From: Octopus vulgaris
Taxonomy: Eukaryota
DNA length: 64,000 bases
Reading direction: 5' to 3'
Assembly: GCA_951406725.2 (NCBI GenBank)
Contig: OX597816.1
Location: 12,710,001 to 12,774,000, forward strand
Position numbers and translations under genes: made by a program. Positions 4,158-62,757 of this stretch are shown here, in pieces. Within the stretch, counting starts at the first letter, position 1; each line of letters begins with the position of its first letter. The notes under the pieces are model-generated. The model saw only the letters and a list, made by a program, of their open reading frames with translations. It made no database searches and had not been told where the DNA came from.

Positions 4158-5147
4158 TCACATATAAGTGATTATCGTACGCAGAGAATATATTGTTCAA
4201 ATAATGGTGATAAAGATGTCGAAGTGCTTAAACGAGCCTTATGTGACATCATGCGACAAACAATGCAGAACGAAAAGCTTTTCTATAATAACGAAAAATA
4301 ATAATAATACTCATTGTTATGAGGAGATAAATGTGTGTGTTTGCGTGCGTCACTCAATAATGTCTTTGTCACTCAATAAAGTCTTTATTATTAGGTTTTT
4401 TTGTGTGCTTTCGTTCTTCGGTTGATTTTTGATGGCTTCTTTATGAGTAAGAAACAATGCGAGGCAGAAATAGAGAGGGACATAGAGGCAGACGTACTGA
4501 GTCACAAACAAACAGAGAAAAATCAACAAGAAAGAGGAGGAAGAGCTTTCGTAAAAAGAAGGGAAGAAATATATATTTGTAAAGTCAAAGATGAAAAGAC
4601 ATGAAACGGTGGGATGGCGGATGAAAGAGAGATGATAGAAAGAGCTGAGGAGGAGGGGAAAGAGAAATACAAAGTGAAGGAGACGTCCAGGAATAAACAG
4701 AGAAATCAAAAACCCGAAGAACACGTGTATGAGTAACGTGTATTTGTCACTGTTTGCACTCGGTTTAATCGGCTGTTTATTAGCTTATAATATGAAGAAG
4801 GAAAAGGCCAAGAAGGTTTGATCAAACAAATCCACCAATAAAATTCATATAAAGAAATATCTACAGTATTTATTATCCCACGTTGATAAAATCAATATGG
4901 CGATATGTATGTTTGCGCGCGTACGTATTTATATTTGTGTGTTGCGTTAATTCCATGCATGTATACCCAAGACCTCCGCTGACGTTGCTCTCTTCCCCAT
5001 CGACATATTGCATCCTATCTTTTCTACAAAAGTCATGCAACCCCCACACATTTTCTGTCTTTCTCTGTTATACTCTGCTCTATCTTTATTTCGCCTTCTT
5101 TTACCTGTAATCTTTCCTTTCTTTCACCTGTACACCATTATATCATC

Positions 5148-5565
5148 TTATTTCTTCATTGCCTATAAGGGGTTAAACATAGAGGGGACAAACAAGGACA
5201 GATAAACAGATTAAGACGATTATATCGACCTCAGTACGTAACTGGTACTTATTTAATCAACTCCGAAAAGATGAAAGGCAAAGTCGACCTCGGCGGAATT
5301 TGAACTCAGAACGTAGCGGCAGACGAAATACTTATTTCTTTATTACCCACAAGGGGCTAAACATAGAGAGGACAAACAAGGACAGAAAAACGGACTAAGT
5401 CGATTATATCGACCCCAATGCGTAACAGGTACTTAATTTATCGACCCCGAAAGGATGAAAGGCAAAGTCGATCTCGGCAGAATTTGAACTTAGGACGCAG
5501 CGGTGGATGAAATACCGCAAAGCATTTCGCCCGGCGTGCTAACGATTCTGCCAGCTCCCCGCCTT
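5148..5565 (-). mobile_element. SINE family B, head-to-tail dimer
   Basis: Full monomer plus a headless second body joined at GAAATA(A/G)GTATTTCGTC; TSD-like tacaccattatat.atc. Confidence 0.88.
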
Positions 5566-5867: not shown

Positions 5868-6190
5868 CTGATGGTCCAGTGGTTAAGGAATTCGGCTCGC
5901 GATTGTAAGTTCGTGAGCTCGATTCCTAAAGGCGCGTTTTGTCCTTGAGCAAAACACTTTATTTTTCCCTTGCTCCAATTCACTCAGCTAGAAAAAATGA
6001 GCTGTACCTGTTATTCAAAGGGTCGTTTTATCTCGTTCTGAGTCACGCTAAATATCCTTGAGAACTACGTGCATGTTAGGCGCGTGTATGGAGGTCCCAG
6101 CCACTTGCACGTTAATTTCCACGAGAGAAGGCTGTTCCGTTGATCGGGTCAACTGGAACCCTTACCATCGTAATCGACAGAAAGCCATTT
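5868..6190 (+). mobile_element. Old tRNA-derived SINE related to family D
   Basis: TGGTCCAGTGGTTAAGG and GCTCGATTCC boxes; 3' part matches 40691-40880. Confidence 0.75.
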
Positions 6191-14502: not shown

Positions 14503-15230
14503 GAGAGAGAGAGAGTTACACATGTTATCCAAGTGACACTGGGGTACACAAATATACGATGCCCAATATATCTACACGTCGGATAAGGGTATATAAGGCA
14601 CATGCACCAAAGCCATATGTGCGCGACATGGTGATCTCATATCAAGATAAACAGTGCATGACCAGTTACAATTTTCCTCAGGTTGAGTAGCCTATCCTGC
14701 TCAGAAGGTTCTTGAATAAGGTTTTTTTTTGAATGATGTTGAAGGAAGCAACTATGTCTCCAGCGGTTAATTATTCCAACTCCAAACAATCCCTCTCAAC
14801 ACATGGCTATGAAATCTGCCCCACTACTCCTGCTCATGACCTTACAGGTGGGGCCCAGTTAGAATTTTCTTCAGGTTGAGTAGCCCATCCCGCTCAAAAG
14901 GTCCCTGAATAAGGGTTGTTTAAGGATGTTGAAAGAACCACCCATGTTTCCAGAGGTGAATTATTCAAACCCAAAAGAATCCCTCTCAACACATGGCTAT
15001 GATGCTCCCCCACTAATTCTGCTCGTAGTCAGAGATGCACATATCGTCAGCCATTAAGGGACATGCTCAACTGGTTAAGGTCAAACAACTGACAAGCAAA
15101 TCTGTGGTATTGAGCAGAATATTTGCTGTAGCCCATCTTTTACACCAAGGTAAAACATGTACATGATAACACTTTCAGTCAGTTAAGATCAGGAGCAATA
15201 AGAACCACCGCTGATACGGCACCAGAGCTT
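14503..15230 (-). mobile_element. AAT-associated ~555-bp non-coding element (family E) with internal ~190-bp duplication
   Basis: Reverse complement of 47897-48451; 3' end abuts (ATT)n; 14663-14840 duplicates 14845-15030. Confidence 0.85.
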
Positions 15231-15424
15231 TTAGTGTTGTTGTTGTTGAATACCGAGCAATAACAACAACAGTTGCTATTATTCAGTAGGATCGCACTAG
15301 ACCGAACTAGACACCTATAATGGAGAGGAGTGTCAATCAGGCGATAACTACTGCAGCGCTTCAGGCCCAAAGTTTTGACATGGCATTACAAGATATAAAA
15401 CGGAAATCAGCGAAGGATAACCAC

Positions 15425-15848: not shown

Positions 15849-16384
15849 CTTAACTGCTTGGAAGTGTTATCATGTACGTTGTTTTGTCTTGGTATAAAAG
15901 ATGAGCTACAGCAAATATTCTGCTCAATACCAGAGGTTTGCTTGTCAGTTTTTTTACCTTAACGAGTTGAGCATTTCCCCTAGTGGCTGATGATATCTGC
16001 ATCTCTGATCACAAGCAGAAGTAGTGGGGAGCATCATAGCCATGTTCTGAGAGGGACTCTTTGGGGTTTGAATAATTCACCTCTGGAAACATGGGTGTTT
16101 CGTTCAACATCTTTAAACAACCCTTATTCAGGGACATTTTGAGCGGGATGGGTTACTCAACCAGAAGAAGATTCTAACTGGGCCCCACCTGCAAGGTCAT
16201 GTGCTGTTTATCTTGATATGAGATCACCATGTCGCGTACATATGGTTGTGTTGCATGCGCCTAGTGTACCCTTATCCGACCGGTAATCATGATGGGTATA
16301 CTGGGCTTTGTATATTTTACCCCAGTGTCATTTTGATGGCATGCACTGCACTCTCACTCAATAATAATAATAATAATAATAATG

Positions 16385-20967: not shown

Positions 20968-22322
20968 AGGGGTAAAATATAAAAAATCAACGAAAATGCA
21001 TATTGTAGATATAAAAAGGCTACTTATGATAGGTAGTGATATAAATATACATTACGTGGTTTAAATAGAGTATTACGTGGTTTAAATTGAAGAGTTAGTG
21101 GTGTTCTGTATTGCGTTGTGTGTTCACATTTAGTTGAGGGAGAAATTTGTTGATGAAAAATGACTCTTTATTCAACCTTTGTTGCATTGTGGTGTTCTGT
21201 GAGCATTGGTAAAAGGGAAATATTTGGAAATTGGGATTAAGATTCTTGGCACATCTTTCTATTTGTTCACTCACCTTTAACTGTCTGTATTGTGGGTGGC
21301 GGATTTGCTCTTTGTGAATGGTGAATCTTTGACGGAGCGAAATTCCTGTTTGTCCAATATAGAGTTTACCGCATCTTATGCATATCATGACATAGATTAT
21401 ATCTGCCGAGGAATAGGTGAAATTTGATTTGATCTTAAATATTTCTCCTTGTTTGAATTGGAATTCTGAACCCTCCAGAAGGTGGGGGCATGTTCCACAG
21501 TTGGAACGTCCACATTTTGTCACTTTTGGCTCAGTAGTTAGTGGGTAAAGTCTAGCGCTGGTTAGTATTCTTTTCAGTGACTTCGGTTGCTTTTTTGCTT
21601 TTTATAATTTTATATGAGCTTAAAATTTCGTTCATCGTTTTGTCTGCTGTGAGGATGGGGAGGTTTTGGGTGATGATGTTGAAGGCTTCGTTATTTCTGG
21701 GGTTATGTGTGGAGATGTACGTGAGTATTTTTAAGTCTCGTTTAGTATTACGGCTAGTTTTCCTTAATCTTTGTATATCTATTCCCTTAGCACTTTTGAT
21801 GCCTTCATTTACTAATGAGATTGGGTAGTGTCTTTTAGTTAGTGTAGATCTAAGTTCAAGGAGTCTATGTTCATGAGTGTCTGTATCGGAAACTATGGTG
21901 CAGATTACGTGAACACACAACTCAATACAGAACACCACTAACTCTTCAATTTAAACCACTAAACCCTATACACTTTCTACATCACTCACATTTCTAATTC
22001 CTGAACTACTTACCTCCCTTATACATATAATCCAAAACTACTTACCTCCCTTACAAATTATCTCTTCTCTCAGGAACTATTAGACCTGACACCGTTTACT
22101 AACCGGTGTTATTCAAACGATGAATAGCTAATGCGAAAACCAATTGGTTCGTTTCAGTCTCTTACCTTATTATTATTATTATTAACTTCTTATAATCATC
22201 AATAATAATGACCTTTTTGACTAGTAATACTCTAAATGTATATTTTTGTCACTACCTATCATAAATAGTCTTTTTATACCTGCAATATGCATTTTCGTTG
22301 AATTTTTATATTTTCCCCTTAC
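20968..22322 (-). mobile_element. 5'-truncated Penelope-like element (Neptune-type) with inverted pseudo-LTR
   Basis: 21076-21128 is the reverse complement of 21909-21959, and 20968-21053 of 22235-22320; flanked by (TA)n; encloses RT-thumb and GIY-YIG frames. Confidence 0.88.
21095..21905 (-). pseudogene. PLE RT C-terminus, Cys-rich linker and GIY-YIG endonuclease (frameshifted)
   Basis: RLLELRSTLTKRHYP; KCGRSNCGTCPHL; IIYVMICIRCGKLYIGQTG..LRQRF..H; RLNKESFFINKFLPQLN. Confidence 0.88.

Positions 22323-23905: not shown

Positions 23906-23910
<5 letters not shown>
23595..23910 (+). mobile_element. Two tandem degenerate SINE family A 5' halves
   Basis: Repeated G.TTCAGT.CCAC / GCAAGTGTCTTCT / CCTTGTGAGTGGA blocks. 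Confidence 0.7.
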
Positions 23911-23953
<43 letters not shown>

Positions 23954-24026
23954 GCATGTATGTATGTTTGTATGTATGTTATGTATATGCACACACTCAC
24001 ACACACACACACACACACACACAAAC

Positions 24027-24098
<72 letters not shown>

Positions 24099-24112
24099 TA
24101 TATAATATATAT

Positions 24113-24415
24113 ATTATTATTAATATTAGGAAATCCATATTAGAAAATTCTTCAGAAAGATATATACGTGTGTAAAATAATTGTTGCATTAAAAATATAA
24201 ATATATGTAAATATATGTAAATATGTATAAGTATAAATATAGAACATATATTAAAAACCTAATTCAAAACTTTTAAACTGTCATATACATTATATATTTA
24301 TACTTATACATATATTTTTATACATATTTACATATTTTTAATACGGCAATTATTTTACAAACGTATGTATCTTCCTGAAGAATTTTCTAGTATGGATTTC
24401 CTGATATTAATAATA
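24113..24415. repeat. ~125-bp imperfect inverted repeat within a TA-flanked element
   Basis: AGGAAATCCATATTAGAAAATTCTTCAG versus CTGAAGAATTTTCTAGTATGGATTTCCT. Confidence 0.8.
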
Positions 24416-24569
24416 TTTTATCATAAAATACATATAATCGCTCGTATTAAATATATAAATACTTTAATAGTATTAATACTCTGATACAATAGAGCACTCA
24501 ATATAGGTTCAGTATATGATATTCTCATTGAATATATTTAACTAAAGATTTATACATACATACATACAT

Positions 24570-24984
<415 letters not shown>

Positions 24985-25839: not shown

Positions 25840-26097
25840 AATAAATGGCTGAGAATTTGTTGTTCATGATATAAGGAAAATTGAATAAAACATCCACTGA
25901 CATTGTTGATATCTGCGCGGTTGATTAAAAATCATGTATAAGCAATTAAGACAGTATCTAAATAGAATAGTCATCTATGTATCATACTTAAAATATACAC
26001 ACTACTGACAGACCAGTTAAAGCAGTATTTGTCCTGAGATTGCATCAGTTATGGATTGGTGTCTTTAAAAGAATATATGTGAGAAAGAGAAGAAAAC

Positions 26098-26246
26098 ATT
26101 ATTTATATTATTTACACTTGACTGATATTTCACCTCATCTTGTTTGTTGTTAATACAACATTTCGGCCGATACACCCTCCAGCCTTCATCAGGTGTTTTG
26201 GGGAAATTTTGAACCTGGGTTCTCATTCCTAAGGTATTTTTCGATG

Positions 26247-26301
<55 letters not shown>

Positions 26302-26396
26302 TAATAATATTATTATCATTATTATTATTCAAGTCAGTGCCTGGAATTGAACTCGGAATCTTGGGGTTAGTAGCCCACGTTCTTAACCATTACGCC

Positions 26397-26399
<3 letters not shown>
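26098..26399 (-). mobile_element. tRNA-head/(AAT,GAT)n/hammerhead module, complete copy
   Basis: Minus strand: TGGCGTAATGG (A box)...GAGTTCAATTCC (B box), then microsatellite, then ACAC-CTGATGA-A-GGCTG..CGGCC-GAAATGTT-GTATT. Confidence 0.8.
26152..26198 (-). ncRNA. Minimal type I hammerhead motif
   Basis: CUGAUGA and GAAA core, stem II GGCUG/CGGCC, GUU triplet; C15.2 changed to U. Confidence 0.65.
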
Positions 26400-26463
<64 letters not shown>

Positions 26464-26464
<1 letters not shown>

Positions 26465-29400
26465 TATGCATTAGGTAGGCCATCTCAAGAGAGACACACC
26501 GCAAACTCTTACAGTATATGGAGAACACGGAATCAAGACAGTAGGCCCTATTTGGACGAGAACAAATTAGCAAATGTGAGGAGGGATATCTTTAGAAATA
26601 ACAGACTCACAGACAGTGAAATAAGCGCGATCAAGCACGCAACGGAAAATGACATAAATATAAGACACAAAGGAAATGAAGAATCAGATGAACAGTATAG
26701 CCCGCCACGAGGCTTAATTGAAAGACTGCCATCTGACCAAAGTACGCAAAGGCCTGAAGATACAAGAAATTCTATTGTACCTGTTAAAGATAGCCAGGAA
26801 AACGAAAAAACAACAGTAACTGAAGATCTCGCATTTGCTGAAGAACACAGAGAGTCTATGGCAGAAATGAGGCAGAAAATCCTGAATACGCTTGAAGTTG
26901 TAAGACATACAAGTATGAATGATAGAGAACCACTTCATAAACTCTCAAATTAAACCAAAATAAAAAACAAATCCAAATTGGCAACTATGTAACAAATGAA
27001 ATAATACGAGAATTAAAACCTGATTTTACTGAGTTAAATGAAATTATTTACGCTTCTGCTAGGGCAATTGAAACCAGCTGTATGCCCCCGAAAAAACAAA
27101 GAAAACAAAACCTGGGAAGAAATCAAACCTGGAGAAGTAAAATTGAAAAAGAGATTGAATTTATGAGAGGGGAAATATCAATATTAAATGAACTAATATG
27201 TGGAAATGATGTAAGATCCAGAACAGGAAGAAAGATGAAGAGAAAATTTGGATCCTCACCAAGAGAAGAACTGATATCAATAAAAGAAACGCTGAAACAA
27301 AAAGTCCAAGCAAAAGCCCAAAGAATACGAAGATTTGAGAAGAGAAACAAGTTTTACAAGCAAAATAAGCTGTTCACATCCAATGCCAAAACATTCTACA
27401 GAGAAATAGGGAAGGAGAAAGTAACCGTTAAAGACCCCCCACCCATGGAAGAAGTTCAAAACTTTTGGAAAAGGATTTGGAGTGACAAGAAGACGTACAA
27501 CATAAATGCAGACTGGATTATACAAACTGAAGGATCCTACCAAAATTTACAACAACAAGCATGAGAAGACATCACAATAGCAGACCTAAGAAAGGCACTC
27601 ACGAAGGCCCATAATTGGAAATCCCCCGGTAAAGATAGGGTGCCGAATTTCTGGCTCGCATCGCTCCCATGCGCACACGGTAAGCTAGTTCAGCTGCTCA
27701 ATGGAATTATGAGAGACCCAAAGAAAACACCTGAATGGTTAGCAAGTGGCATTACTTACCTACTCCCAAAGAATAACGAAACCAACCTTCCAAAAAACTA
27801 TCGGCCTATAACCTGTCTATCCACCACGTATAAAATCCTAACATCTATCCTGGCGGAGAAAACATATGCATTCATGGAGAAGAACGATATTTTCCCCATT
27901 GAACAAAAAGGGTGCCGCCGAGGCTCTTACGGATGCAAAGATCAACTGCTAATCAATCGTATGATCCTTGAGAACTGTCACAACAAGCGCAGAAATCTCA
28001 GCACCGCATGGATTGACTATAAAAAGGCCTTCGACAGTATACCGCATCCATGGATCTTGAGATCGCTGGACATCTTCAAAATTTCCCCTGTGATTTCAAA
28101 CTTCCTGAAACACAATATGTCGTTGTGGAATACGAATCTCCAATTATACCACTCTAATGGAGTACTTGCCTCAGAAAATATAAACATCAACTGTGGAATT
28201 TTTCGAGGTGACTCACTTTCACCTTTAATATTCTGCATAGCCCTAATACCCCTTACAAGTGAATTAAACAGAACAGGGTATGGGTATAAAATTGCCAATA
28301 AAAAAATAAGCCATCTATTTTATATGGATGACTTAAAACTTTATGGTAAAGACAATAATGAACTTGAAGGCCTATTGCGCACCGTGAAGGCATTCAGCGA
28401 TGACATCGGGATGGAGTTTGGACTTGAGAAGTGTGCCAAGGCAACTTTCCAGAAAGGGAAAGTGAAGACCACAAATTCAGTCGTGTTAGATGTTGACACA
28501 GTCATAAGAGAGCTTGAGCAAGAACAAACATACAAATATTTAGGGATAAATGAAGGCTCTGGTATTCAGCATGCAAGCATGAAAGAGGAAATCAGGAAGG
28601 AATGTTATAGGAGAGTTCATGCAGTCCTGAGATCTGAACTAAATGCACGTAACAAGGTGTTAGCTCTAAATTCCTTAGCAGTTCCAGTTGTTACTTATAG
28701 CTACAATGTGTTGAACTGGAATATGAGTGAAGTAAAGAATATAGATAGAAAAATACGCAAGCTGCTGAGTTGTAATAGGATGCACCACCCAAAGGCAGAC
28801 GTAGATCGCCTTTACCTTCCCAGAGCCCAAGGAGGTCGAGGCTTGATCCAATTTGAACTAGCTTACAAAACAACCACAATTGGACTGGCAAAATATCTCG
28901 AAATATCGAATGACTGGATGCTAAAGCTCGTGGAAAATCACGAGAGACGAAAGAAGCTTCATTCTATCATAAAGGAAAGCAAAAAATTTGCTATTGATCT
29001 CGTGCAGGATACCCAAACTGAACAACCCGAGGGAAGTACGGCAACTATTGTTGCAAAGAAGGTGAAAATGATGGCAATGAAAAAAGCGCACGAGCAATTG
29101 GCTGATAGGTGGGAGGAGAAACCTCTGCACGGCAAATATGTGACCCGCAGCAAACAAGCTGATGTTGACCAGAAACAAACCCATCAGTGGCTACGGAGCT
29201 CAGGGCTAAAAGCAGAGAGCGAAGGTTTCATCCTGGCTGCTCAAGATCAAAGCCTATTAACTCGGAACTACCAGGCCAATGTGATGAAAAATGGAGCAGA
29301 CCCAAAATGCCGATTCTGCAACGACATGATTGAAACAGTGGACCACCTAATCTCTGGATGTAAAGTCTTAGCACCAGTGGAGTATAAATTAAGACATGAC

Positions 29401-30048
29401 AGAGTTGGCCAATATCTCCACTGGCTAATAAGTCGGCATTACAATATCAAAACTGCCGGCAAGTGGTATAATCACCACCCTGAGGCTGTAACTGAAGGAG
29501 AAAATGTAACCATTCTGTGGGACTTTCCAGTACATACAGACCGAACCATCAAGGCCAATAAACCAGATATTGTTGTGAAAGACCAAAACAATAAAGTTTG
29601 CTTATTGATCGACATGAGCATCCCCTGTGATCATAATATCTCAGCGAAAGAGTTTGACAAGCTCAGAAAATATAAAGACCTACTCATTGAAATTGAGAAA
29701 ATGTGGCATCTCAAGGCGGTTACAATACCAGTGATCGTAGGAGCACTAGGAATGATCAAGAAGGGAACCGAAAATTATATGAGAATGATCCCTGGCTTAC
29801 CATCCCTGCAAGAAGTGCAAAAGATTGTCTTAACTGGTACATCACACGTATTGAGAAGAGCATTGTCGATGTGAGAACTGTTGCTGCTCATGTATTTTAA
29901 TTTAACTTTAAAAAAAAAAAAATTAAAAAAATGAACGAACTACTGAGTTTGGTTTAATGGCCTACCAATGTATACTATGAGTTTCTTTGCCCTAGGAGTC
30001 GGGAAGACACTCGGCAAGAAATGATAACAAATTTGAAAGAAGAAAAAA

Positions 30049-30051
<3 letters not shown>
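26464..30051 (+). mobile_element. R4/Dong-like RLE non-LTR retrotransposon, 5'-truncated, inserted in (AAT)n
   Basis: Single ancestral ORF broken by a frameshift near 26950 and an in-frame TGA at 27562; AAT repeats on both sides; 3' UTR hairpin TTTCTTTGCC..GGCAAGAAA. Confidence 0.93.
27640..29874 (+). pseudogene. Reverse transcriptase, CCHC finger and restriction-like endonuclease (744-aa open remainder of the LINE ORF)
   Basis: YRPITC, WIDYKKAFDS, GIF(R)GDSLSP, LFYMDDLK, YKYLG, CRFC..ETVDHLISGC, RHD, KPDIVV..D..K..KY. Confidence 0.93.
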
Positions 30052-30079
<28 letters not shown>

Positions 30080-30260
30080 TCGAAAAATAACTTGGAATGA
30101 GAATCCAGGTTCGAAATTTCCCCAAGATATCTGATGAGAGCTGGAGTGTCTATCAGCCGAAACGATGAGTTAACAACAAACAAGATGAGGACAAAATCTG
30201 TCAAAATGTAACTAATGTAAATAATGTACATAATTCCTCATCTCTTAAATATGGAACTGG
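30052..30260 (+). mobile_element. (AAT)n/hammerhead half of the module; inverted partner of 26098-26399
   Basis: CATCGAAAAATA..TTCCCCAAGATAT-CTGATGA-GAGCTG..CAGCC-GAAACGAT-GAGTT..AAATAT.GAACT; HHR at 30126-30171 with GUU changed to GAU. Confidence 0.8.
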
Positions 30261-31703
30261 ATGAGAAGAAAATCAATCCTAGAAGACAAAAGAGGTCGAA
30301 ATGCAAGTTGGCATTCTCAGGTGACTGATCTGTTAAAATTATTGATGAAAAATAAGGATTAAAATCAATGTAAGAAAAACAAACGAATTTATCTGACAAC
30401 CCAACGCGTGTGTATATGTATGTGTGTCTGTATGTATGTATGTGTGGGGGTATACATTCATGCATACATACATACATGCATACATTTATACATACATACA
30501 TATACCCTTACACGTATATGGCAACCATTGTGACATTCTTGAAATCATAGCTGTACGCATGCGTCGTTGTCTGTGCGAGTGTATGTTTCTATGCGAGATA
30601 ACAACACGGATGCACAGAAATGGACGCACGTGCGAATTCATGTAGCAATTCATGTAGCAAGATGTAACAAGCCTCAGCATCCAGTTGTGTATTAATGTAC
30701 ATGTAGGATGACAGAAATCGCAAAAGTTTAGTAGGTAAAAATATACGAAGTCCAGGATTTTAGATTAAAACAAGATGGTCGCATATTTGGAAAGTTACGA
30801 TGCAGTAAAAATGTTCCGGCATTTTAAAATCACAAAATTATAGAAAAAATAACACGAAATGTTAAACTGAACGATGAATACAAAATATCAAATGCAAATT
30901 ACAATGCTGTACTATTATAAAATTCTAAATTTATAAAATTATTGTATTATCAAATTTGAAAGAATGAAATTATTAAATTATCAAATTTAAAATTCATGAA
31001 TTAAAAGATTATGAAGTATGAAATTATAAAATTATAGAATTTTCAAATTATAGAATAGGAGAATTTTCAAATTATAGAATAGGAGAATTTTAAATGTGTG
31101 CGTGTTAGGGTTCTGGAAAATGAGAGAATTATGATGGTAATATGTGTGGAGGGTCACAAACGCTTAGCGATTAAGGGAGAGATATGATTCTATGTGGAAA
31201 CGATTCAACGCAGTGTGTTGTCTTTTAAATAGGCCTGGTGTAATTTTGTGTAGTGCTGTCATATAACAGACGAGGAAAAAGCCCCCCGTCCTTGGACGGT
31301 GCTGAGTTCTCAAACATTTAAACCAAATTTAACCTAACTTTGAGACACCAGCAAAAGAAGAAATAAGGATAGAATTTTTTTCTATTCCAAAGAAAAACGG
31401 TTTTATTCACACAAATATGCAAACGAATAGTTTAAAGTACCAGTAATGATAAGGCTGTTGACTGGGAGGACACAAACATGGTTTAAACAGTAAGCTTGGC
31501 AGGAAAGAAACGTGTCTTTAAGCAGTACAAAAACAACAAAAAATGGAAGGTGCATTTATGCACAGGCTGACGGAAGAAATGCAGGACAAAAACGGCTTTA
31601 TAGGTCGCATTCTCACCTGGAATCGATTTTTGTAATTTTTTCAAGACTTATACACGCCCTGATACCGTCGGTATCTACATATCAAATTTGAGCGCAATCG
31701 GAT

Positions 31704-31935
31704 GGAGGATTTTAGCACAAGACCAAAGCCTCCCTACCAGAAATCACCAAAAACATATAATGAAAAGAAACATAACAAGTAACTGCAGATTATGTGGAGA
31801 TGGACAAGAAAAAATAAATCATATTATCTCTGGCTGCCCAGTCCTGGCTAAGAAGGAATATATTCACAGACACGACAGAGTTGGAACCTACATACACTGG
31901 AAGCTATGCCAACACTATGGAATAACAACAGAAGA
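31704..31935 (+). pseudogene. Internal fragment of a second R4/Dong-like LINE (CCHC and RHD region)
   Basis: AQDQSLPTRN..CRLC....EKINHIISGCPVLA..YIHRHDRVG.YIHW aligns by eye to 29236-29450. Confidence 0.88.
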
Positions 31936-31946
31936 CACACACACAG

Positions 31947-32005
<59 letters not shown>

Positions 32006-32655
32006 TCCTAGAAGACACACACACACATACACAGACAGAACAGATTTTATATAATAGACTAGATAGCATCAGTTGCTTTTAGTTAAATTTGAAGCGTTTT
32101 CAAAAGGTAACTTAGTATATACAGGGGAAAATAGTTCGAATTTTGCGTTTTGGTCAGCCAGGGGTGGATCAATGTAAAGAATTTGTCTCTGGTGCAAATC
32201 AATAACGAAAGATTCTATTGTGTTCTGGTGCATGAGCTTACATTTGATGTTATATCTCAGGCATTTTGGCGTCTTTAAGGACAAAATATATTTGAAAAAG
32301 CTTTTCTTTTCTTTCTGAAAGAACGGATGTAATGGTGGATCCTTAGATTTCCAGCTGTTCTTCGTCAGGGCAATAAAAGCTATGCATATATTGTTATTCT
32401 CGACAAAGGTATTTTTACTCGGTGTATCGCAGATTTTGGAGTGAAGCATAGAACAATTATGGAGATTGCTACAGATCTAGTTTATCCTGGATTTTCGTTA
32501 TTCTTGACTGATAGGCATTTGGTATTGATTTAGTCATTTGTCTGGTGAAGCTATATGTGCAGCGATAACTGTGTTTAACAGTTCCCGTTGAATATCAGAT
32601 GGTCATGGATTATTATACGAAAATAGCAAGTGCACGCGCACAGGACAACTATGTA

Positions 32656-34070: not shown

Positions 34071-34354
34071 TTAAATAAAACTAATAATATTAGTAACGTT
34101 GTTGAATTTGGGCATAGTGCCAGTAGTTTGAAGGTAAGGGATAGGTTGACTATATCGTCTCCAGTGCCGAATTGGTAATGGTTTTGTTGATCCCGGGAGA
34201 ATGAAATGTATGAACATGAACAAAGGGCTGTGATAGAAAATAAGAATTTCAGAATTCTGAGAATCTGATGAGATTTTCCATTGAAGACTGACCATACCAT
34301 TGAAGTACGAAGATGAGAAATGTTTATAGAGGACAAAACAACAAACTATGGAAA

Positions 34355-34611
34355 TACAGTTCTATGTTAAAAGTTGAGGAATTATGTACATTATTTACGA
34401 TATTTACATTTGACGGATATTTTTCCTCATCATGTTTCTTGTTAACACAACGTTTCAGCTGATATACCCTCCAGGCTTCATCAGGTGTCTTGGGGAAATT
34501 TTGAACCTGGGTTCTCATTACTAAGGTTCGCATTCTACGGGCATATGGCGTACTGGTTAAGAGCGCGGGCTACTTACCCCAAGATTCCAAGTTCGATTCC
34601 AGGCAGTGACT

Positions 34612-34708
<97 letters not shown>

Positions 34709-34787
34709 TGATAATAATAATAATAATAATAATGATAATAATAATAATAATAATAATAACAACAACAATATCGAAAAATACCTTAGG
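34355..34787. mobile_element. Inverted pair of the tRNA/AAT/HHR module
   Basis: HHR half on minus (34355-34527) lies back-to-back with tRNA head, (AAT)n and ATCGAAAAATACCTTAGG on plus (34539-34787). Confidence 0.82.
34444..34489 (-). ncRNA. Minimal type I hammerhead motif (best-preserved stems I and III)
   Basis: GACAC-CUGAUGA-AGCCUGGAGGGUAUAUCAGCU-GAAAC-GUU-GUGUU; palindromic AACGUU stem III. Confidence 0.72.
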
Positions 34788-36600: not shown

Positions 36601-36637
36601 TACGTACATGCATACGTATACAAGAATACTACATATA

Positions 36638-36921
36638 AAGTTGCGGCCAAAATGTTCAGAACGACATTGTTTTCGTCAGAAAAGTAGATATATTTTTTTA
36701 TCAAAGTTGTTTTATATTCTATAATGGGTTTTGCAGTAAATCACTAAATCATCCATAACTTTTGTATTATCCTCTCAAATTACACCAAAATCTCAGACAA
36801 TAACAATTGATATTGTATTTATTGTCTGTGAAAATTATAGAATATAAAACAACTTTGATAAAAACTTATAACTACTTTTCTGACGAAAACAATGCCGTTC
36901 TGAACATTTTGGCTGCAACTG
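36638..36921. mobile_element. Tc1/mariner-type MITE
   Basis: ~85-bp TIRs AGTTGC(G/A)GCCAAAATGTTCAGAACG..; TA on both sides. Confidence 0.85.
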
Positions 36922-39900
36922 TATGTATATTCAATTTTGGGAGATTAATCGATATGCGGGTATTCTATTTCGGATAATACAAAATAACCTAATAAGTATA
37001 TCTTACAGTAAACCCATGGTATCAGTTTGCACATCACGAAATAATACTTAAATGATATAACCAAAATTGCCAGCTGGGCATATAATGTACTTCATTATTT
37101 ATATCATACTTTAGTTAATACTTATATTTATTAAATATGAAGGAACTACACGTGTTATATATATATGCTTGTATGTACACGCACAAACGGACATACACAT
37201 CTCAAGTCAAGTAATAAGTTTACGTTATAATAAAGGTTACTAATGAAACAATTGTAGTAATACCAGGCAACTCATCCGTCTGTCTTTATTAAATGTGTCT
37301 GTGTGAGAATGTGTCAGTGTGTGCCAGTGCGTGTGTGTGAGTATGTGTGTGTGTATGTGAGTGTACGTGTGTGAGTGTGTGCGCGTTTGGGGAGAGTGTG
37401 TGTATGTGTGTTTATGTGTGTGCGTGTGTGTGTGTGTATCAAGAGAGTCAAAGAGAGAGATAGAAGCCAGAGGCAGACATACACACATACAGAGACACTG
37501 ACCGAGAGTCAGATAAGTACACCACAGATAAATAGATTTTACATTCACTCACAATTCTACACCTCTCTCTACATCCTCACGCATATGCGAACGGATATAG
37601 CCACATAAATACATACGTGTATTCCTGTACGTAAACTAATGATAAAATGCCTGAACCAGATGATGGTTAATTTTGGCTTGCTAATTTCGTTTGTGTCTAA
37701 ATTCAGCAAGTGTACCATTAATTAATCATAATTTTGGCTGTAACATATGATGCTGCTTAATTTTTTAAGCATTCATCTCTCCAGAAATTCAATTAACATC
37801 CAGCTCATGGCCACTTATACGTAGATGTATGCCTATGTCAAATTATTTTGGACTAATCACAATGATATTTGGAGAAAGCTCCATTGGTGGAACACAAGAA
37901 TGGAACGAAGCGAAAATATATTTTTGTTCTTTCGACTTAGCTCATTGCTGGTTGAGGTGACATTCAATCAAACGTACGTTCCAGATACGACCATCCTGAC
38001 GTTTTATAGAACTAGTAATGTCTTGGCCAATGCGTTTTCTGTTGTTTTGTTTTTTAGACAGTCGCTAGGTTGAAATATAATGAGATTTTCCTGTAGCTTT
38101 TAAAGAACCAAGAAATAATATAGAAGCTCTTTCATTGGCCTATTTTTGTTCCTGTTATTGTTGTTTGGCACGTGGTCAATAGTGAGCAGAGACATCTATA
38201 ATCAAATGTATTCCCTTATCGACCGTTTCATTTTTCTTCTGAAGTAAAGTACTGTCGCTGGATCCATAGGGTCGGTTACCTGGTTTCCATGGCGCATGTC
38301 TGGCCGAGATTACAATAATCCTTCTCAACGGGAGACCAGTTCATTCCAGGAATACTTATCTTCAGATGAGTTGACTGGAGCAACGTGAAATGAAGTGCTT
38401 TGCTCAAGAACACAATGCACAGCCCAGTCCATAAGTTGAAACCACGATTTTGCCATCAAAGTGGCAACAGGCAACACCCTAACCACTACGTCTTCTGCCT
38501 TTTTTAAGAAGTATGTTGGGTCACCCGCTCGGACGTGTTTTATCATATTTAAGACGGCAGGGTATACTTTCAGAAAATTTTTATTTCAGAAAGCTGTTAT
38601 TTCTAGCAATTTGAGTGTCCACTTGCAGAAGTTCTTCCCAGCCTTTTTTCCTACCAAGTATCCCTTTATAATTGAATAAAGATTTTCTATGAATTACAGG
38701 CTTTGAAACGCCTGACCACTCAATCTTTGAATTCAACCCACGTCCTCCTCAATCGTTTTCTTTGTGGGGTTAAAGTTGTATAAATTTCGACTGCCTTCGT
38801 TTACTTCTGAATTGTTCAACGGTGGTGCTGCTCCAGCATGACTGCAGCATTAACACTGAAGCACATTAAAGAATTAAAGAAAATAATGTAATCCTGTTTC
38901 ATGACTGTTGGTGTTGATGGAAATGGTTGTGGTGCTGATGTGTGCCAATATCAAAAGGAGTGTTTGTTGAAGTGCTTACATTTGTTAATAGTTTCCGATC
39001 TAGTGTTTTAGCTTGCATTAAAGGTTCTTCTATTCCAGATTAAAAACGTTTTTCTGAAATGAGCATATTTCGCACTGCCTGGTTCAGTTTATTTATTATT
39101 TCACCTTAGATTCTGTAGATGATGTTCGTGTTCCAGAGCAAAACAAATATCGTGACACACGAATACGACAAACACGTTTCACCTTTGTTGAAGCTAGTCA
39201 ATGCTGGACACACGATTGTCAACTGCTTAAACTGAGTTCGTGCCTCAATTTCTGCTTAAGTGGTTGACATTCAGGTTTATTAAATGTTTCAGTTGCGTTT
39301 GACATATTTTTCAAGAACTTGGAGTAAGTTTGAAATAACAAATTAAAATTTCGTTAATTTCTTTATTGCTAAAGACTGTTGCTTTTAGTATTAAAAGCAG
39401 AATAGGTAACATTATGCATTTGGTTGTATTACGATATCAGGTTTGTACAAAGAATATGAAATTTAAGTGCTTTAGTCCATGAGACAGTAAAGCGCTCCTA
39501 GGATGACATTTTGGTTATAAGTTTCGTAACCTATAAATTGAGCTTTTATAGTCTAGGTGAATGCAAATGTTTTACTTAAATAAGGCCACTGAAAGAATGA
39601 ATTATAATCAATCAAAAACTTAGAAATACCATAATCATGAGTGTGATGGAAAGACAAGTAGCTTGTGCTTTTTAAAGTATGGGCTTCATATTCTTATCAT
39701 TAATTAAATTGATCTTGAAGTAATCAATATATATATAAGACATGGGACCAAACGAAGAGGAGAATTTTACAGACAGATTATATTAGGTGAAGTAAAATGA
39801 GTAAATTAAATATTCGTAATTGAATAGAAATTGGCAATTAAAATATTGACATCTTAATTGTGCCAAATTGATACATGAGTGATTTCGTGTTGCTGTCAGT

Positions 39901-41870: not shown

Positions 41871-42022
41871 GCAGTTTTTTTTTTTGTCGGCAGCCAAAAA
41901 ATACCGGCATTTTTTCGAACAATTTTCCAGAAAAAATTATTGATTATTAAGTATTGCTAATTTTTTCTGGAGAATTGTTCGAAGGAATGCCGGTATGTTT
42001 TTGATGCCGACAAAAGAACTGC
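41871..42022. repeat. ~65-bp imperfect fold-back
   Basis: TTTTGTCGGCA..ATACCGGCATT..TTCGAACAATT.TCCAGAAAAAATT versus its reverse complement. Confidence 0.85.
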
Positions 42023-43895: not shown

Positions 43896-44932
43896 CAGCC
43901 AAAGATTTCCGAGTTCGCATAGCCTTACCTATAGAGTTATTTCCTAGAAGACCTCCGTCTTTCCTTCCTGCCTTTCCGATACTTATTGATGCACCATGTT
44001 GCTTCCAGGAGAGTCCAAATTATCTGAAAGCTAAAAGAGAGAATAACTGCTCGGAACTCTGTACATTTCTGTTCGAGTTGGAAGTAATTTTATCCAAATA
44101 CTTCTCAGATCATTCCATGCTAACTTTCAACAAGGAAAGACATATGCACCTAAATCAGAAACCATTATCTATCTTCAATACAGGGTGGTAGATTGGGGTC
44201 GGTGTACTTAAAAAATTCCTTGCAGTAATCCGTCTGTTCTTTTCCTTACATTTGAAATTTCCGTCCCGTCGGGGTCAGTTTGCACAGCCCACGCTCCAGG
44301 ATCGATACGAGAAAGTATTAGTCAAGTTGTGGGATCGTTGTATCGAATAGCCTCCTTCCTTCCAAACTGCAAGCCTCCTGCCTAACTTAGGAACAGCTAT
44401 TTATCCTCAGGTCTCCCCTGGTCGCGCAAAGCAACGATTGACCAAGAACCTCTAGATGCTCTCAATGAAATATATGTCTACCGGTCTTAATAGAAAATGA
44501 GATACAAGACAAGACACTTGGTGTTCGGACAGTAAGACAACCAAAACAAAATTACTGAGAATTAAAAATCTTTTCATATGTCTCTACACGCAATACTAGA
44601 AACAACGCATATTTATCCAAAATAAATCAATGCTTCCAACCATGACCATTCCATTGTCTGTATATTCGACAATGAATTGCATAACATGTTCTTCCTTTTT
44701 CTCCAACTGTAATATGAAATATGATAAGAATGTTACTATTTCTAGCACAAAGAACGACCACGTAGAGGCTTCCATGTGGCTATTTACTCATCACAGCTGC
44801 ATAGAAAAGAGAATAAGTAAAATCCTTATATATTTACATTGTTAGTGTATTCTAACTCTCAACTGAATGAATTTCACAGCTCTTACTAAGAAGCTCATGA
44901 ACGTCACATCTCATAAATATATAAGTATTCTT

Positions 44933-45142
44933 ATAGCTGATCATGGATGGAAAAGTGGAGATCACTTTCTCCTGTGGGATGAAGTTAAAATAATCGACAG
45001 AGAACACTAATGGAAAACACGAAAACTAAAAGAGGCAGTACATATACTAGGACACAATAACCTCCTAAGCGGACCTAGTGTAGATATAAGTAGCATATGG
45101 GAACTGGTATTAAGGAAGAATGCAAAAATATTAGGTTTATAA
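44933..45142 (+). pseudogene. Penelope/Poseidon-type GIY-YIG endonuclease C-terminus
   Basis: IADHGWKSGDHFLLWDEVKIIDREH*WKTRKLKEAVHI..NNLLS...ISSIWELVL fits the PLE endonuclease tail pattern A.H....H.I.W...I.D.E...R..KEA.HI....L. Confidence 0.75.
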
Positions 45143-45171
45143 GCCCTAACATTCACTCTATAATTGCTCAT

Positions 45172-45236
45172 GGGCATAAGAGCGCAGGCTACTAACCCCG
45201 AGATTCCGAGTTCAAACCCAGGATGTGCCTTGAATA

Positions 45237-45318
<82 letters not shown>

Positions 45319-45860
45319 TGCTCAATACCACAGATTTGCTTGTCAGTTGAGCATGACCAGTTGAGCATGTCCCTTAGTGGCATAGCCATGTGTTGAGAGG
45401 GGTTCTTTGGAGTTTGAATAATTCACCTCTGGAAACATGGATGGTTCGTTCAACATACTTAACAACCCTTATTCAGGTTTATCTTGATATGAGATCACCA
45501 TGTCGCGCACATATGGTTGTGATGCATGTGCCTAGTGTACCCTTATCAGACGGATAGTCATGATGGGTATACTGGGCTTTCGTATAGTTTACTCCAGTGT
45601 CACTTTGATGACATGCACTGCTCTCTCACTCAATAAAAAAAAAATAATAATAATAACAATAGCAATATTAGCAAAAAATACCTTAGGAATCAGAACGCAG
45701 GATTGGGTTCAAAATTCTACCAAGACACCTGATGAAGGCTGGAGAGTAAATTAGCCGAAACGATGTGGTAACAACAAACAAGACGAGGAGGACATATCCG
45801 TCCAATGTAAATAATGTAAATAATGTACAGGACTCCTCCTCTCCAAAATATAGAACAAGT
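45172..45860 (+). mobile_element. tRNA/AAT/HHR module directly after the PLE endonuclease, with nested family E
   Basis: Head at 45172-45233 (A box deleted), (AAT)n, family E at 45318-45632, HHR at 45724-45769 GACAC-CTGATGA-A-GGCTG..TAGCC-GAAACGAT-GTG. Confidence 0.82.
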
Positions 45861-46582
45861 ACTGTTCTACACAGTCTTAAATTTAAATGCAATCTTGTGG
45901 TATGAGTTCTTCTCATATGGCTTCATGCCTAAACTCGTCATAAGCTTTCCAAAAGCAGAAATAGTTGTAGCATTCATGATACATAAAAGCCAATGAAAGT
46001 AGAAATATATACAAATAGAAATATATGCAATGAGATCAAATATGCATTAGATGTTTCATTGTGTCTTTGTTTTAAAGTAAATACATTGTTCTGCAGTGTC
46101 ACTTTGTGTAGTCACGTATAATAGATAAACAGATGACCTATTGATGGGTACGTCTCTTCACGAAAGGTTAAGCAGCTGATGATGTTTGTCGCGCTGGTGT
46201 GCTAGACAAATATTCATTCTATAACTCCTGGGAAAATGTCAATAGCAATGATAAACATTTACTGAATAGAACGGAACGCAAATGCTTGACAAATTGATTC
46301 TATTTATCCCATTAATAAATAAATATCTATTGTTTATATTTCAGACGCCTTCGTGAGTATGTGGTTACATTGTCGGTTTTAGAAATCATGGTTTCCAGTT
46401 CAATCGGGAGGGAGACACAGTAACATAAGTAAGTATCTTTTACAGCATAGATAACCTTAGATCGATTTAAGCATTGTTAGCAAAATTTGGCCGGTTGAAA
46501 GATACTAGGGAGGAGAAAAGCGGACGCATATGCATTACATACACACACGCTCACACCTATGTATATACGTATATATACATAT

Positions 46583-47319: not shown

Positions 47320-47812
47320 AACTACACGTGCGAAATAATGTGACAACAGAAATAAACGGACCGGTACCCTACGAAAATGACGACCGTCAAAATAATGGGC
47401 CGGACGTTGTACCTCATGTCCCGCAATTAAAACCCAAAAGACGTAAATGGACACGTGAGGAATACATTTCTATCTTACACGCATACTTCACAGCAATGCT
47501 CTACCCACAAAATGAAAATACAACAACACATACATATAAAATATGGAAGGAAAATAATAGAGATATAGACTTGGATACAGCAATGAACCCTAATAAATTA
47601 GCTAACGTACGAAGATAAACACCAGGACTTACAAACACATATAACATACAGAAAATTGCACTACTAGGCACTGCACACATCCTACGCAGAACACTTTCCA
47701 TACAGTAACCATCAGAGCATCACAACAAATCACAGCACATACCCAAGGCACACAGAGCTGCGCTCGGTAGTGAAGTGAAAGCACGCTATAAAAATAAAAA
47801 TAAAACTACTGA
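47320..47812 (+). mobile_element. Internally deleted R4/Dong-like element (N-terminus fused to C-terminus and 3' UTR) in (AAT)n
   Basis: KRRKWTREEY..YKIW..NKLANVRR joined at ~47615 to TPGLTNTYNIQKIALLGTAHILRRTLSIQ*; both parts match the ends of the 26464-29874 ORF. Confidence 0.88.
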
Positions 47813-47896: not shown

Positions 47897-47899
<3 letters not shown>

Positions 47900-48451
47900 C
47901 CCTGATGCAGTACAAGGCAGTGGCTCTCATGGCTTCTGATCTTAACTGATTGGAAGCGTTATCATGTACATTGTTTTGTCTTGGTATAAAAGATGGCCTA
48001 CAGCAAATATTCTGCTCAATACCACAGATTTGCTTGTCAGTTGTTTGACCTTAACAAGTTGAGCATGTCCCTTAATGGCTGACGATATGTGCATCTCTGA
48101 TCACGAGCAGAAGTAGTGGGGGAGCATCATAGCCATGTGCTGAGAGGGATTCTTTTGGGTTTGAATAATTCACCTCTGGAAACATGGGTGGTTCTTTCAA
48201 CATCCTTAAACAACCCTTATTCAGAGACCTCTTGAGCGGGATGGGCTACTCAACCTGAAGAAAATTCTAACTGGGCCCCACCTGCAAGGTCATGTGCTGT
48301 TTATCTTGATATGAGATCACCATCTCGCGCACATATGGTTGTGATGCATGTGCCTGGTGTATCTTTATCAGACGGGTAGTCATGATGGGTATACTGGGCT
48401 TCGTATATTTTACCCCAGTGTCACTTTGATGGCATGCACTGCTCTCTCACT
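47897..48451 (+). mobile_element. Family E, apparently full length
   Basis: (AAT)n-GCCCTGATGCAGTAC...CTCTCTCACTC-(AAT)n; the same 5' start recurs at 55866. Confidence 0.9.
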
Positions 48452-49089
48452 CAATAATAATAATAATGGATACGTGTGCGTATGTGTGTGCATGTGTGTA
48501 TGTGAGCTTGTGTGTGCATGCGTGTCTATGAGTGTGTATGTGTGTGTGTGTGAGTGTGTGCACGTGTGTGCTCTGTGTGTATGTGAGTGTGTGCGTGTGT
48601 GTGTGAGTGTGTGCTATGTGTGTATGTCTGTGTGTCTTGTGAGTGTCTGTGTGTGTGAGTGTGTGTGCGTATGTGTGTGTGTGAGTGTATATCAAGAGAG
48701 TCAGAGAGAGTTTATTAAAAAAATGGATACAATTTCAACTTCCGTAAATGTTAATTCACTGAATAATTGGACATCTCTTAATTCGGTCGATGTTTTCATT
48801 GAGTGGAACTATTTTTCATCCACTTTGTGTAGATCTCCCACCAGTCCACTGTTACAATCTTAAAATCTGTATTACAGCACGTGTATTTCGCTTGGCGGTT
48901 TGGGACTTTTAATGCTAATAGTTATCGAAGATAAAATACTTACGTTGCAGAATAAATTTGAATTCATAGAAATATATTTGCTTTTTTTATAAACTCTGGC
49001 CATTCTTTTCCGATTGTAAAACAATAATGTTGTCTTGATGCTATTCCATTGTCACGAAGGATAATTGTGCACAATTATGCTACATCAAA

Positions 49090-53829: not shown

Positions 53830-53953
53830 AAACCACAGAAAATGATAAATTCACGAAAGGAATGAAAATTAAAAAGGTTTACCATCTCAACTTGAGATGG
53901 TAAACGTTTTTAATTTCCATTCCTTTCGAGAATTTATCCTTTTTTTGTGGTTT
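53830..53953. repeat. ~60-bp-arm palindrome with 1-nt loop
   Basis: ..GTTTACCATCTCAA-C-TTGAGATGGTAAAC.. extending to AAACCACA / TGTGGTTT. Confidence 0.9.
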
Positions 53954-55709: not shown

Positions 55710-55865
55710 TAATGATAATAATAATAATAACAATAATAATAATAATAACAATAATAATAATAATAATAATAACAACAACAACAACAACAACAACAACAAT
55801 AATAATAATAATAATATAATAATAACAACAACAACAACAATAATAATAATAATAATAATAATAAA
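55525..55865. repeat. Compound (CTA)/(AAT)/(AAC)n microsatellite
   Basis: Directly visible. Confidence 0.95.
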
Positions 55866-55947
55866 TGCCCTGATGCAATACAAGGCAGTGGTTCTCATGG
55901 CTTCTGATCTTAACTGATTGGAAGTGTTATCATGTACATTGTTTTGA
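55866..55947 (+). mobile_element. Family E 5' fragment
   Basis: Matches 47897-47978 and follows (AAT)n. Confidence 0.85.
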
Positions 55948-62350: not shown

Positions 62351-62757
62351 AAGGCGGCGAGCTGGCAGAACCGTTAGTACGCTGGGCGAAATGCGTCGCC
62401 GTATTTCGTCTGCCGTTACGTTCTGAGTTCAAATTCCGCCGAGGTCGACTTTGCCGGTCATTCTTTCAGGTTCGATTAAATAAGTACCAGTTACGCACTG
62501 GGGTCGATATAATCGACTTAATCCGTTTCTCTGACCTTGTTTGTCCCCTCTGTGTGTAACCCCTTGTGGGTAGTAAAGAAATAGGTATTTTTTCTGTCGC
62601 TACGTTCTGAGTTCAAATTCCGCCGAGGTCGACTTTGCCTTTCATCCTTTCGGGGTCGATTAAATAAGTACCAGTTACGCACTGGGATCGATGTAATCGA
62701 CTAAATCCCTTTGTCTGTCCTTGTTTGTCCTCTCTGTGTGGGCAATAACGAAATAAG
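62351..62757 (+). mobile_element. SINE family B head-to-tail dimer
   Basis: Monomer, then GAAATAGGTATTT junction at ~62580, then a headless second body. Confidence 0.92.

Follow-up and report, generated by a model that had tools for sequence, protein, structure and literature searches.

A high-copy family of Penelope-type elements (PLEs) in Octopus vulgaris carries a tRNA-like head inside its pLTR. We analyzed a window of 64,000 nt (GenBank assembly GCA_951406725.2, contig OX597816.1, forward-strand positions 12,710,001 to 12,774,000), a repeat-rich stretch of 28–42% GC with many microsatellites. Within it, the end of a Penelope-type endonuclease frame leads through a short linker into a tRNA-like head, an (AAT)n tract and a tail with a minimal hammerhead motif (Table 1). 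Read contigs join endonuclease end, linker, head and tail in many copies, and we are highly confident that the head is part of a coding PLE family. With moderate confidence we favor a fuller account, in which the head is a likely Pol III promoter and the family spreads SINE-like copies through its own RT. The strongest form of this proposal is an autonomous retrotransposon with its own SINE, in which the pLTR holds a working Pol III promoter, every intact insertion is a SINE master gene and a PLE is the partner of a tRNA-headed SINE; we offer it tentatively, at somewhat short of even chances. The window copy itself is a single dead, 5'-truncated insertion of this family, a fossil with no likely function.

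Table 1. Coordinates of the PLE copy, its flanks and the other loci of the family (positions in the window).
Feature	Position	Strand	Basis
Candidate left TSD, 10 bp, 8/10 identical to 45857-45866	44923-44932	+	boundary set independently by read loose ends at 44932
C-terminal 69 codons of a Penelope-type RT-GIY-YIG ORF, 5'-truncated	44933-45142	+	translation, phmmer, tblastn, read contigs
Linker, 29 nt, which other copies conserve; another TAA lies in frame at 45161-45163	45143-45171	+	read contigs
tRNA-like head; B-box remnant at ~45210-45219; 14-nt deletion after 45178	45172-45232	+	read contigs, window copies
Left part of the module's (AAT)n tract (27 units, the first at 45237)	45233-45318	+	
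Later insertion, 327 bp, from an unrelated ~570-bp repeat flanked by (TAA)n; this copy is truncated on the left and internally deleted	45319-45645	+	window copies
(AAT)n tract, right part, degenerate	45646-45672	+	
pLTR tail of the module, with two family 3' ends (45827 and 45856); the last ~30 nt are optional	45673-45856	+	
Minimal type I hammerhead motif: helix I 5 bp, CUGAUGA core, unpaired base, helix II 6 bp, GAAA, helix III	45724-45769	+	
Candidate right TSD, then single-copy DNA	45857-45866	+	anchored TSD test
Second locus: head-to-head pair with a LINE in its (AAT)n, perfect 10-bp TSD	26096-30262	both arms	
Second locus, minus arm: head from base +7, no tail	26096-26397	-	
Second locus, plus arm, with tail	30051-30262	+	
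Third locus: intact head on the plus strand, joined to a hammerhead tail on the minus strand (34527 to 34354)	34354-34787	both arms	

Results

Homology identifies the reading frame ahead of the head as the probable end of an RT-endonuclease protein. The initial annotation had taken an unlisted frame with one stop for a Penelope-type endonuclease C-terminus, and our searches bear this out. The frame falls below the 110-aa threshold of the ORF listing and translates from IADHGW to KILGL and a stop, 69 residues with a single internal stop at 45008-45010. Searching 1.84 billion representatives with this peptide (phmmer) returned 301 matches at E<=0.001, the best at 4.8e-20, and P0166 is identical at 51 of the 69 residues (74%). 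The long matches are RT-endonuclease proteins with Pfam RVT_1 (P0019, P0128, P0135, P0187 and P0188), 44–63% identical to the frame by tblastn; by the same measure the C-termini of the RVT_1-bearing P0155, P0187 and P0188 are 54–63% identical. The closest named proteins are P0001 (Octopus vulgaris) and P0212 (Octopus sinensis). P0192 carries a GIY-YIG name from its source, and P0135 has a GIY-YIG Pfam match below the cut-off. RVT_1 followed by the endonuclease C-terminus is the domain order of canonical EN+ PLEs, as described in the text available of PMC8557442, and the ORF end at 45142 reads, by homology, as the GIY-YIG endonuclease end of RT-EN proteins. The element's link to an RT is one of homology only. 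The tentative label "Poseidon type" comes from domain order and hammerhead layout compared with PMC11167929. Pfam gave no match to the 69-aa peptide, and a word-index homolog search for longer proteins passed none of its seven candidates.

The two stops in this frame have different origins. Most read depth has CAC (His) at 45008-45010 (45008 T>C, 45010 A>C), so the internal stop is private to this copy. We considered the terminal stop at 45140-45142 as copy-specific too and rejected this, because P0166 stops at the same residue: it is the family stop. The far end of one 12-contig consensus in run X1 reads through 45140-45142, which would move the stop to 45161-45163.

The copy is truncated at 44933. 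Neither RT nor EN remnants turned up in 43900-44932 when 12 PLE proteins were searched against it by tblastn. The flanking DNA is single-copy except for a short repeat around 44740-44770, and in other copies the element runs further upstream; together these results place the break at this position. Depth in X1 is 62.5 upstream of 44904 and climbs from 44932 onward, staying in the tens to hundreds of thousands across the head. In the four runs (X1, X2, X4 and X5), 23, 14, 28 and 16 contigs, respectively, extend upstream of 44932 in frame and match the upstream sequence of P0001. P0166-like octopus proteins and P0212 take the family ORF back to the RT thumb region; P0212, an octopus relative known as a protein without DNA context, joins that region to the EN. 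The proposal that the autonomous parent of the module had been identified thus stands for the parent family and falls for the element itself: the window holds no autonomous copy and no RT upstream, and neither it nor the read contigs yielded an intact RT-EN copy with a head.

The join between endonuclease and head recurs in other copies of the family. Contigs of the four runs placed on 44400-45236 at 80% likeness numbered 2519, 1579, 1554 and 2348 (contig counts are not copy counts, nor is summed depth a copy number). Among them, 52 (X1), 33 (X2), 39 (X4) and 28 (X5) pass from the linker into an intact head with its A box, at an agreement of 0.70–0.80; they stop aligning at 45178 because the window copy lacks 14 nt there. 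Four of the 32 pieces displayed, from a total of 8028, span the frame to 45178 or beyond, one of them reaching 45215. Their 20–27 differences from the window copy mark them as other loci, and two are probably the same locus in two runs. Seven of the same 32 leave the window sequence within the linker (45162-45170), with 29–114 letters unseen, so that the head is demonstrated in other copies and not for every endonuclease copy. None of the 24 loose-end rows displayed, of 660, passes from linker to non-head sequence. Heads preceded by different DNA are frequent as well (62, 43, 62 and 59 contigs in the four runs, agreement 0.60–0.67), and upstream of them, in three of the four runs, the consensus breaks up some 3 nt short of the head. 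In three of the six joints listed, the frame to which the head region is tied lies on the opposite strand.

Insertion boundaries treat the endonuclease end, head and tail as one unit. Around the read-defined ends, 44923-44932 and 45857-45866 match at 8 of 10 positions; 129 of 5000 random pairs score as well. This anchored test came after a first unanchored scan of the element, whose best match was within chance (0.118), and a degenerate TSD alone is modest evidence; its right half could alternatively be a short insertion within the final bases of the family. Around the head alone there is no TSD, the best anchored match being 7/9 with a score of 3 or less. Given read-fixed ends with an 8/10 flank match and no anchored head TSD, a single insertion most likely brought in all three parts. 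Recurrence of the join in other copies, the missing head TSD and the TSD around the whole unit together make the head a part of the family and not a chance SINE insertion at this site, as the initial annotation had argued; the two observations that could have spoken against it, endonuclease copies that lack the head at this position and a duplication around the head itself, went the other way. Ancient entry of the head into a master element as a SINE-like insertion may still lie behind this and agrees with family membership.

Later insertions have obscured the module. The 327 bp at 45319-45645 belong to another repeat, which inserted into the (AAT)n tract and is not part of the module; copies of this ~570-bp repeat without any PLE part lie near 15850-16360, 47899-48467 and, on the minus strand, 14503-15231. 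Without it the module is a head of ~65 nt, an (AAT)n tract and a tail of ~185 nt, as at 26096-26397. Its (AAT)n tract has been struck by later insertions at two of the three loci in the window.

The head is tRNA-like by its A and B boxes and their spacing only. It starts at 45172, 29 nt after the stop, in agreement with the earlier estimate of about 30 bp. The 14-nt deletion removed the A box from this copy; other copies keep it, and canonical A and B boxes at tRNA spacing occur in the majority head in the reads and in the window heads at 34539 and 26397. A strict A/B-box pattern found one real match in the window and none in 100 window shuffles. The acceptor and anticodon stems are decayed, unlike the boxes. 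The head may resemble tRNA-Arg. ARAGORN at default settings called no tRNA in the window; at 80% score it drew a cloverleaf for the 26333-26403 copy, yet made 26 matches in the window at that setting. Rfam gave no match at gathering cut-offs across the window and, by E-value on three stretches, chance-level matches only, with neither a tRNA nor a hammerhead model among them. Single-strand folding of three heads was no better than shuffles. Such a lack of a tRNA call and of a better-than-shuffle fold is typical for SINE heads. The boxes would be the tRNA-type internal Pol III promoter elements by which SINEBase defines a tRNA-derived SINE, as given in the part of PMC3531059 available. Against phages, blastn with the head gave three non-significant matches (E 2–7), two of them on tRNA-Gln T-arms, and a 20-nt head motif had no match in metagenome, viral and prokaryote contig collections.

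A 12-bp palindrome at 45165-45176 spans the end of the linker and the start of the head. It has one mismatch here and is perfect in the X1 consensus; it may record a fold-back step during gain of the head.

The tail carries a predicted minimal type I hammerhead, as expected of a PLE pLTR. Its core, described as conserved in the portion of PMC4209133 available, is present in all four window copies, with the unpaired base after position 9, five to six of six helix II pairs and four to five of five helix I pairs; helix III is palindromic in one of the four. The family helix III is palindromic ACGU (91% of X1 depth), and the copy at 45724-45769 has ACGA and a broken helix I pair: 45763 is A here and T in 91% of X1 depth, which breaks helix III, and 45768 is G here and T in 89%, which breaks helix I. 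With the A box lost and both helices broken, Pol III transcription or hammerhead cleavage of the copy at 45172-45856 is unlikely. Folding of the four hammerheads gave none better than shuffles.

Family copies end at two alternative 3' positions. In boundary contigs placed on 45655-45960, X1 depth stays high to ~45857 and then falls to single-copy level (48 after 45863), and long, heterogeneous loose ends on the 3' side cluster at 45827 (81 and 91 contigs in X1 and X4) and 45856 (67 and 58). One window copy ends at 45826 and three at 45856. This is the optional 30–40-bp 3' tail of PLEs, which PMC11167929, in its available text, ties to two RT start sites. The tails of the four window copies are only 82–88% identical to one another, so the family is old here.

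An ATG lies within the hammerhead core at 45732. A 25-codon frame follows it, then a GT...AG stretch of ~47 nt, which is short, ending just before the family 3' end (45732-45856); the stretch is present in two of the four window copies, and no read showed it spliced. Frame and stretch together may be an ORF start with an intron. Presumed RNA runs, whose RNA nature is guessed, gave 941 and 438 tail-like contigs, and in one such run (X20) two contigs join the head end to the tail through a short AAT stretch. We draw nothing on expression from them; no RNA run was listed for 43900-45240.

Two further loci in the window show the family in PLE-type arrangements. At 26096-30262 an inverted, 5'-truncated copy lies beside a direct one between short TSDs (26087-26096 and 30263-30272), which match at 10 of 10 positions, a result reached by none of 5000 random pairs. 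The plus arm of the third locus, at 34354-34787, runs from head base +1 at 34539 through (AAT)n into the first tail bases, and we found no TSD around this locus. Its arms meet at the module equivalent of ~45680, where one stops and the other starts, and look like a twin-priming inversion of one RNA copy rather than two copies. Neither of the short copies, at 26096 and at 34354, has coding sequence, yet both are arranged as PLE-type inverted pairs. The copy at 44933-45856, with its 8/10 TSD, has no inverted arm. Of the five module arms in the window, two begin no more than 7 nt from the first base of the head, and none of the three window heads is a head-only copy.

The LINE nested in the second locus (26464-30050, plus strand) is near-intact, with an RT (RVT_1, 1.7e-28), a zinc finger, a restriction-enzyme-like end and a 769-aa open stretch at 27565-29874. 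Fragments of its relatives lie at 31604-32011 and 47340-47790.

Discussion

Hammerhead, two 3' ends, inverted pair with TSD and a palindrome at the pLTR 5' end are signatures of a PLE. The pLTR of the family would run from the linker through the tRNA-like head and (AAT)n to the minimal hammerhead. By analogy with Poseidon, as described in the available text of PMC11167929, the PLE protein would nick AT-rich DNA, and reverse transcription would start downstream of the hammerhead at one of two sites, 45827 or 45856 in this element, which lie ~30 nt apart. The RT would then copy back through hammerhead, (AAT)n, head and linker; for the window copy it would have halted 239 nt upstream of the head. 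This copy was later struck by the nested ~570-bp repeat and has lost its A box and a hammerhead core base.

In intact copies, the head would act as an internal Pol III promoter. Canonical boxes, arms that start near head base +1 and the decay of the consensus ~3 nt before the head make such a role likely. A transcript from the position equivalent to 45172 would pass through (AAT)n, the hammerhead and both RT start sites, and short transcripts of this kind could be copied in trans by the element's RT, giving SINE-like, pLTR-only insertions. Such a transcript would meet no T4 terminator before the RT start sites, so any intact copy would double as a source gene for SINEs. The missing T4 is within what chance allows, since 30–96% of shuffles lack it as well, and one of the four tails has one. 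Against the promoter reading, short 5'-truncated copies are expected of any PLE, promoter or not. The coding RNA would more plausibly come from Pol II or from read-through transcription, as described for Penelope of Drosophila in the account available from PMC2377424.

How the head was gained is a separate matter, and two routes fit: a simple SINE may have landed in the pLTR, or a pLTR that already had a head may have homed to the ORF-pLTR junction. The first bears on the most serious competitor to a promoter role, that a simple SINE landed once in the master repeat and has been copied since as a passive passenger, short copies being ordinary 5' truncations. Head plus (AAT)n is indeed a simple SINE layout, and the window copy at 45172 inserted or survived without an A box. 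P0015 and related matches show an endonuclease C-terminus and, within a few codons, an apparent next ORF start. In P0015 the endonuclease end runs almost directly into sequence like the N-terminus of the next ORF, implying a sister family with a very short pLTR and no tRNA head; as that family appears to leave no room between ORF end and next start, the head looks like a derived addition. Insertion of a SINE into an LTR has also been proposed by Kojima as the origin of TRIMp3, according to the text available of PMC10886601. A SINE-insertion origin is, however, compatible with the promoter account, and lack of function alone sets the passenger reading apart from it. The A and B boxes of the majority head are canonical although its stems have decayed, head-only copies are missing among the three window heads, and heads often start at or beside +1. 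We therefore consider a functionless passenger unlikely, though the strongest of the alternatives.

Less probable still is a non-autonomous derivative, in which a tRNA-headed pLTR homed into or fused with an ORF-pLTR junction, the chimera with an endonuclease fragment was amplified and the true master has a plain pLTR. Poseidon protein is described in the available part of PMC11167929 as preferring to cut near its own ORF-pLTR junction at ATT, and the linker here has AATT just before the head; the seven displayed pieces that leave the linker into unseen sequence and the lack of a full-length copy with a head also suit such a chimera. The tail, however, is followed by single-copy DNA and not by a second, head-less pLTR, copies extend upstream in frame to match P0001, P0166-like proteins and P0212 reach back to the RT thumb region, and the displayed loose-end rows hold no passage from linker to non-head sequence.

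Pol III products are short and uncapped, which makes it very improbable that the head is the element's main promoter, supplying full-length RNA for translation and reverse transcription. The head does occupy the usual place of a PLE promoter, the start of the pLTR, as placed in the text available of PMC2377424 and PMC8557442. No T4 occurs in the 239 nt of ORF and linker seen here, but this is expected in 56% of shuffles and covers only that part of the ORF, and PMC10886601 argues, in its available text, that autonomous elements must use Pol II. An independent SINE inserted behind a PLE fragment at this locus only can be set aside as a negligible prospect: the window is repeat-dense and one nested insertion inside the element did happen, but the join recurs in all four runs with differing mismatch counts that argue against single-locus contigs, and a candidate TSD surrounds the whole unit and none the head.

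Among described PLEs, the element most resembles, and by analogy would work like, Poseidon_Ac (PAc) of Anolis carolinensis, of the Penelope/Poseidon clade. In the available description (PMC11167929), PAc shares the C-terminal GIY-YIG, a pLTR after the ORF, a minimal hammerhead, an ATG at the boundary of hammerhead core and stem II (45732 here) and 3' ends ~95–125 nt past that ATG, with two ends ~30 nt apart. It differs in that this text describes no tRNA-like head or (AAT)n for PAc. Unlike in PAc, the frame from ATG 45732 closes after 25 codons or sooner in three of the four window copies. Those PLE features that could be tested, namely the GIY-YIG end of the ORF, the minimal hammerhead, the optional 3' tail and an inverted pair with a short TSD, are all found in the octopus family.

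Other Penelope elements share its anatomy and differ in their promoters. Penelope of Adineta vaga (Pen2a, Pen2 and Pen3a), in the main text of PMC3846280, has inverted pLTR pairs, an 8–10-bp TSD, an optional 31-bp tail on one arm and a palindrome at the pLTR 5' end, and the layout at 26096-30262 is the one described there; its putative promoter is of TATA/Inr type, and the word tRNA is absent from that main text. Penelope of Drosophila virilis also has its promoter inside the pLTR, a TATA-less internal promoter of Inr/DPE type like those of LINEs and not of the tRNA A/B-box type; this is the only dissected PLE promoter according to the available text of PMC2377424.

Pol III heads and hammerheads have been combined in other ways elsewhere. 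TRIMp3 elements (Helenus, Ajax and Cassandra; available text of PMC10886601) have small-RNA-derived Pol III boxes inside a terminal repeat, with an origin by SINE insertion proposed, but they are non-autonomous elements with two LTRs, PBS and PPT, whose autonomous partners do not have the repeat, whereas here a coding element with PLE-type machinery and anatomy carries the head. Schistosoma Sm-alpha and Sj-alpha unite tRNA-derived sequence and hammerhead in one high-copy repeat (PMC2770079, as far as available), but with a canonical hammerhead (PMC4209133) and no described link to an endonuclease ORF in these texts. Animal non-LTR retrozymes, solo pLTR derivatives and MRC1 (PMC7229834, bioRxiv 10.64898/2026.07.22.740005 and PMC8557442, each in the text available) are likewise short non-coding hammerhead elements thought to be mobilized by PLEs. 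Non-LTR retrozymes differ in forming tandem arrays of units that each have a type I hammerhead and no tRNA head, and neither "tRNA" nor "promoter" occurs in the main text of bioRxiv 10.64898/2026.07.22.740005. None of the 136 TRF rows of the window is a tandem array of our unit.

The short form of the family resembles both a SINE and Sm-alpha. The copy at 44933-45856 is no SINE in the sense of a short non-coding unit with boundaries of its own: it has 69 coding codons, and its head has no TSD. Ohshima and Okada are said to have described the octopus SINEs OK, OR1 and OR2 in 1994. These are, like our short copies, abundant tRNA-derived octopus retroposons, to judge from the available text of papers citing them (PMC4758252, PMC4824008 and PMC3531059). 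Citing papers file OR1 or OR2 as CORE SINEs, and overlap with the module, against SINEs known here by description only, is possible. We found no description of a tRNA-derived head in a PLE pLTR in the literature examined; Repbase, Dfam, SINEBase, the 1994 octopus SINE paper and supplements may hold the family.

A PLE that makes SINEs would widen the range of their known partners. Within the literature examined, in the text available to us, SINEs have LINEs as their partners, and the only terminal repeats described with a Pol III head are those of non-autonomous LTR elements. If true, the strongest form of our account would add a new partner class. It would also show one way in which a SINE can arise within its own partner, in a genome that still holds the intermediate. 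A coding PLE family with the head in its own repeat would make testable, on one short construct, how SINEs acquire the site that their partner's RT recognizes. The same construct would test which RNA a PLE copies: its start site, its polymerase, and whether it is cleaved or not. The finding also bears on annotation: in octopus-type genomes, some sequences now listed as unclassified SINEs may be the ends of PLEs.

Additional repeats in the window

The ~570-bp non-coding repeat is abundant and always lies between (TAA)n tracts, with a further copy at 55865-55946 and one copy holding a 190-bp tandem duplication. It has no tRNA boxes and no Rfam match, and blastn of the nested copy against the LINE at 26464-30060 gave no match. 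Judging from its target, it may be a passenger of Dong/R4-type LINEs.

A second, unrelated PLE-like fragment lies at 21095-21950 on the minus strand, with a full GIY-YIG domain (Pfam 6.9e-07) and no hammerhead core of the searched pattern beside it. Further A/B-box heads at 5872, 8168, 8685, 13138, 36313, 41071, 53798, 54579 and 60735 represent at least two other SINE families, unrelated in sequence to the PLE head. Another SINE-like family shows 184-bp tandem duplications at 5147-5515 and 62401-62740, and long hairpin-like inverted repeats occur at 23908-24641, 36635-36924, 41879-42018 and 53830-53953.
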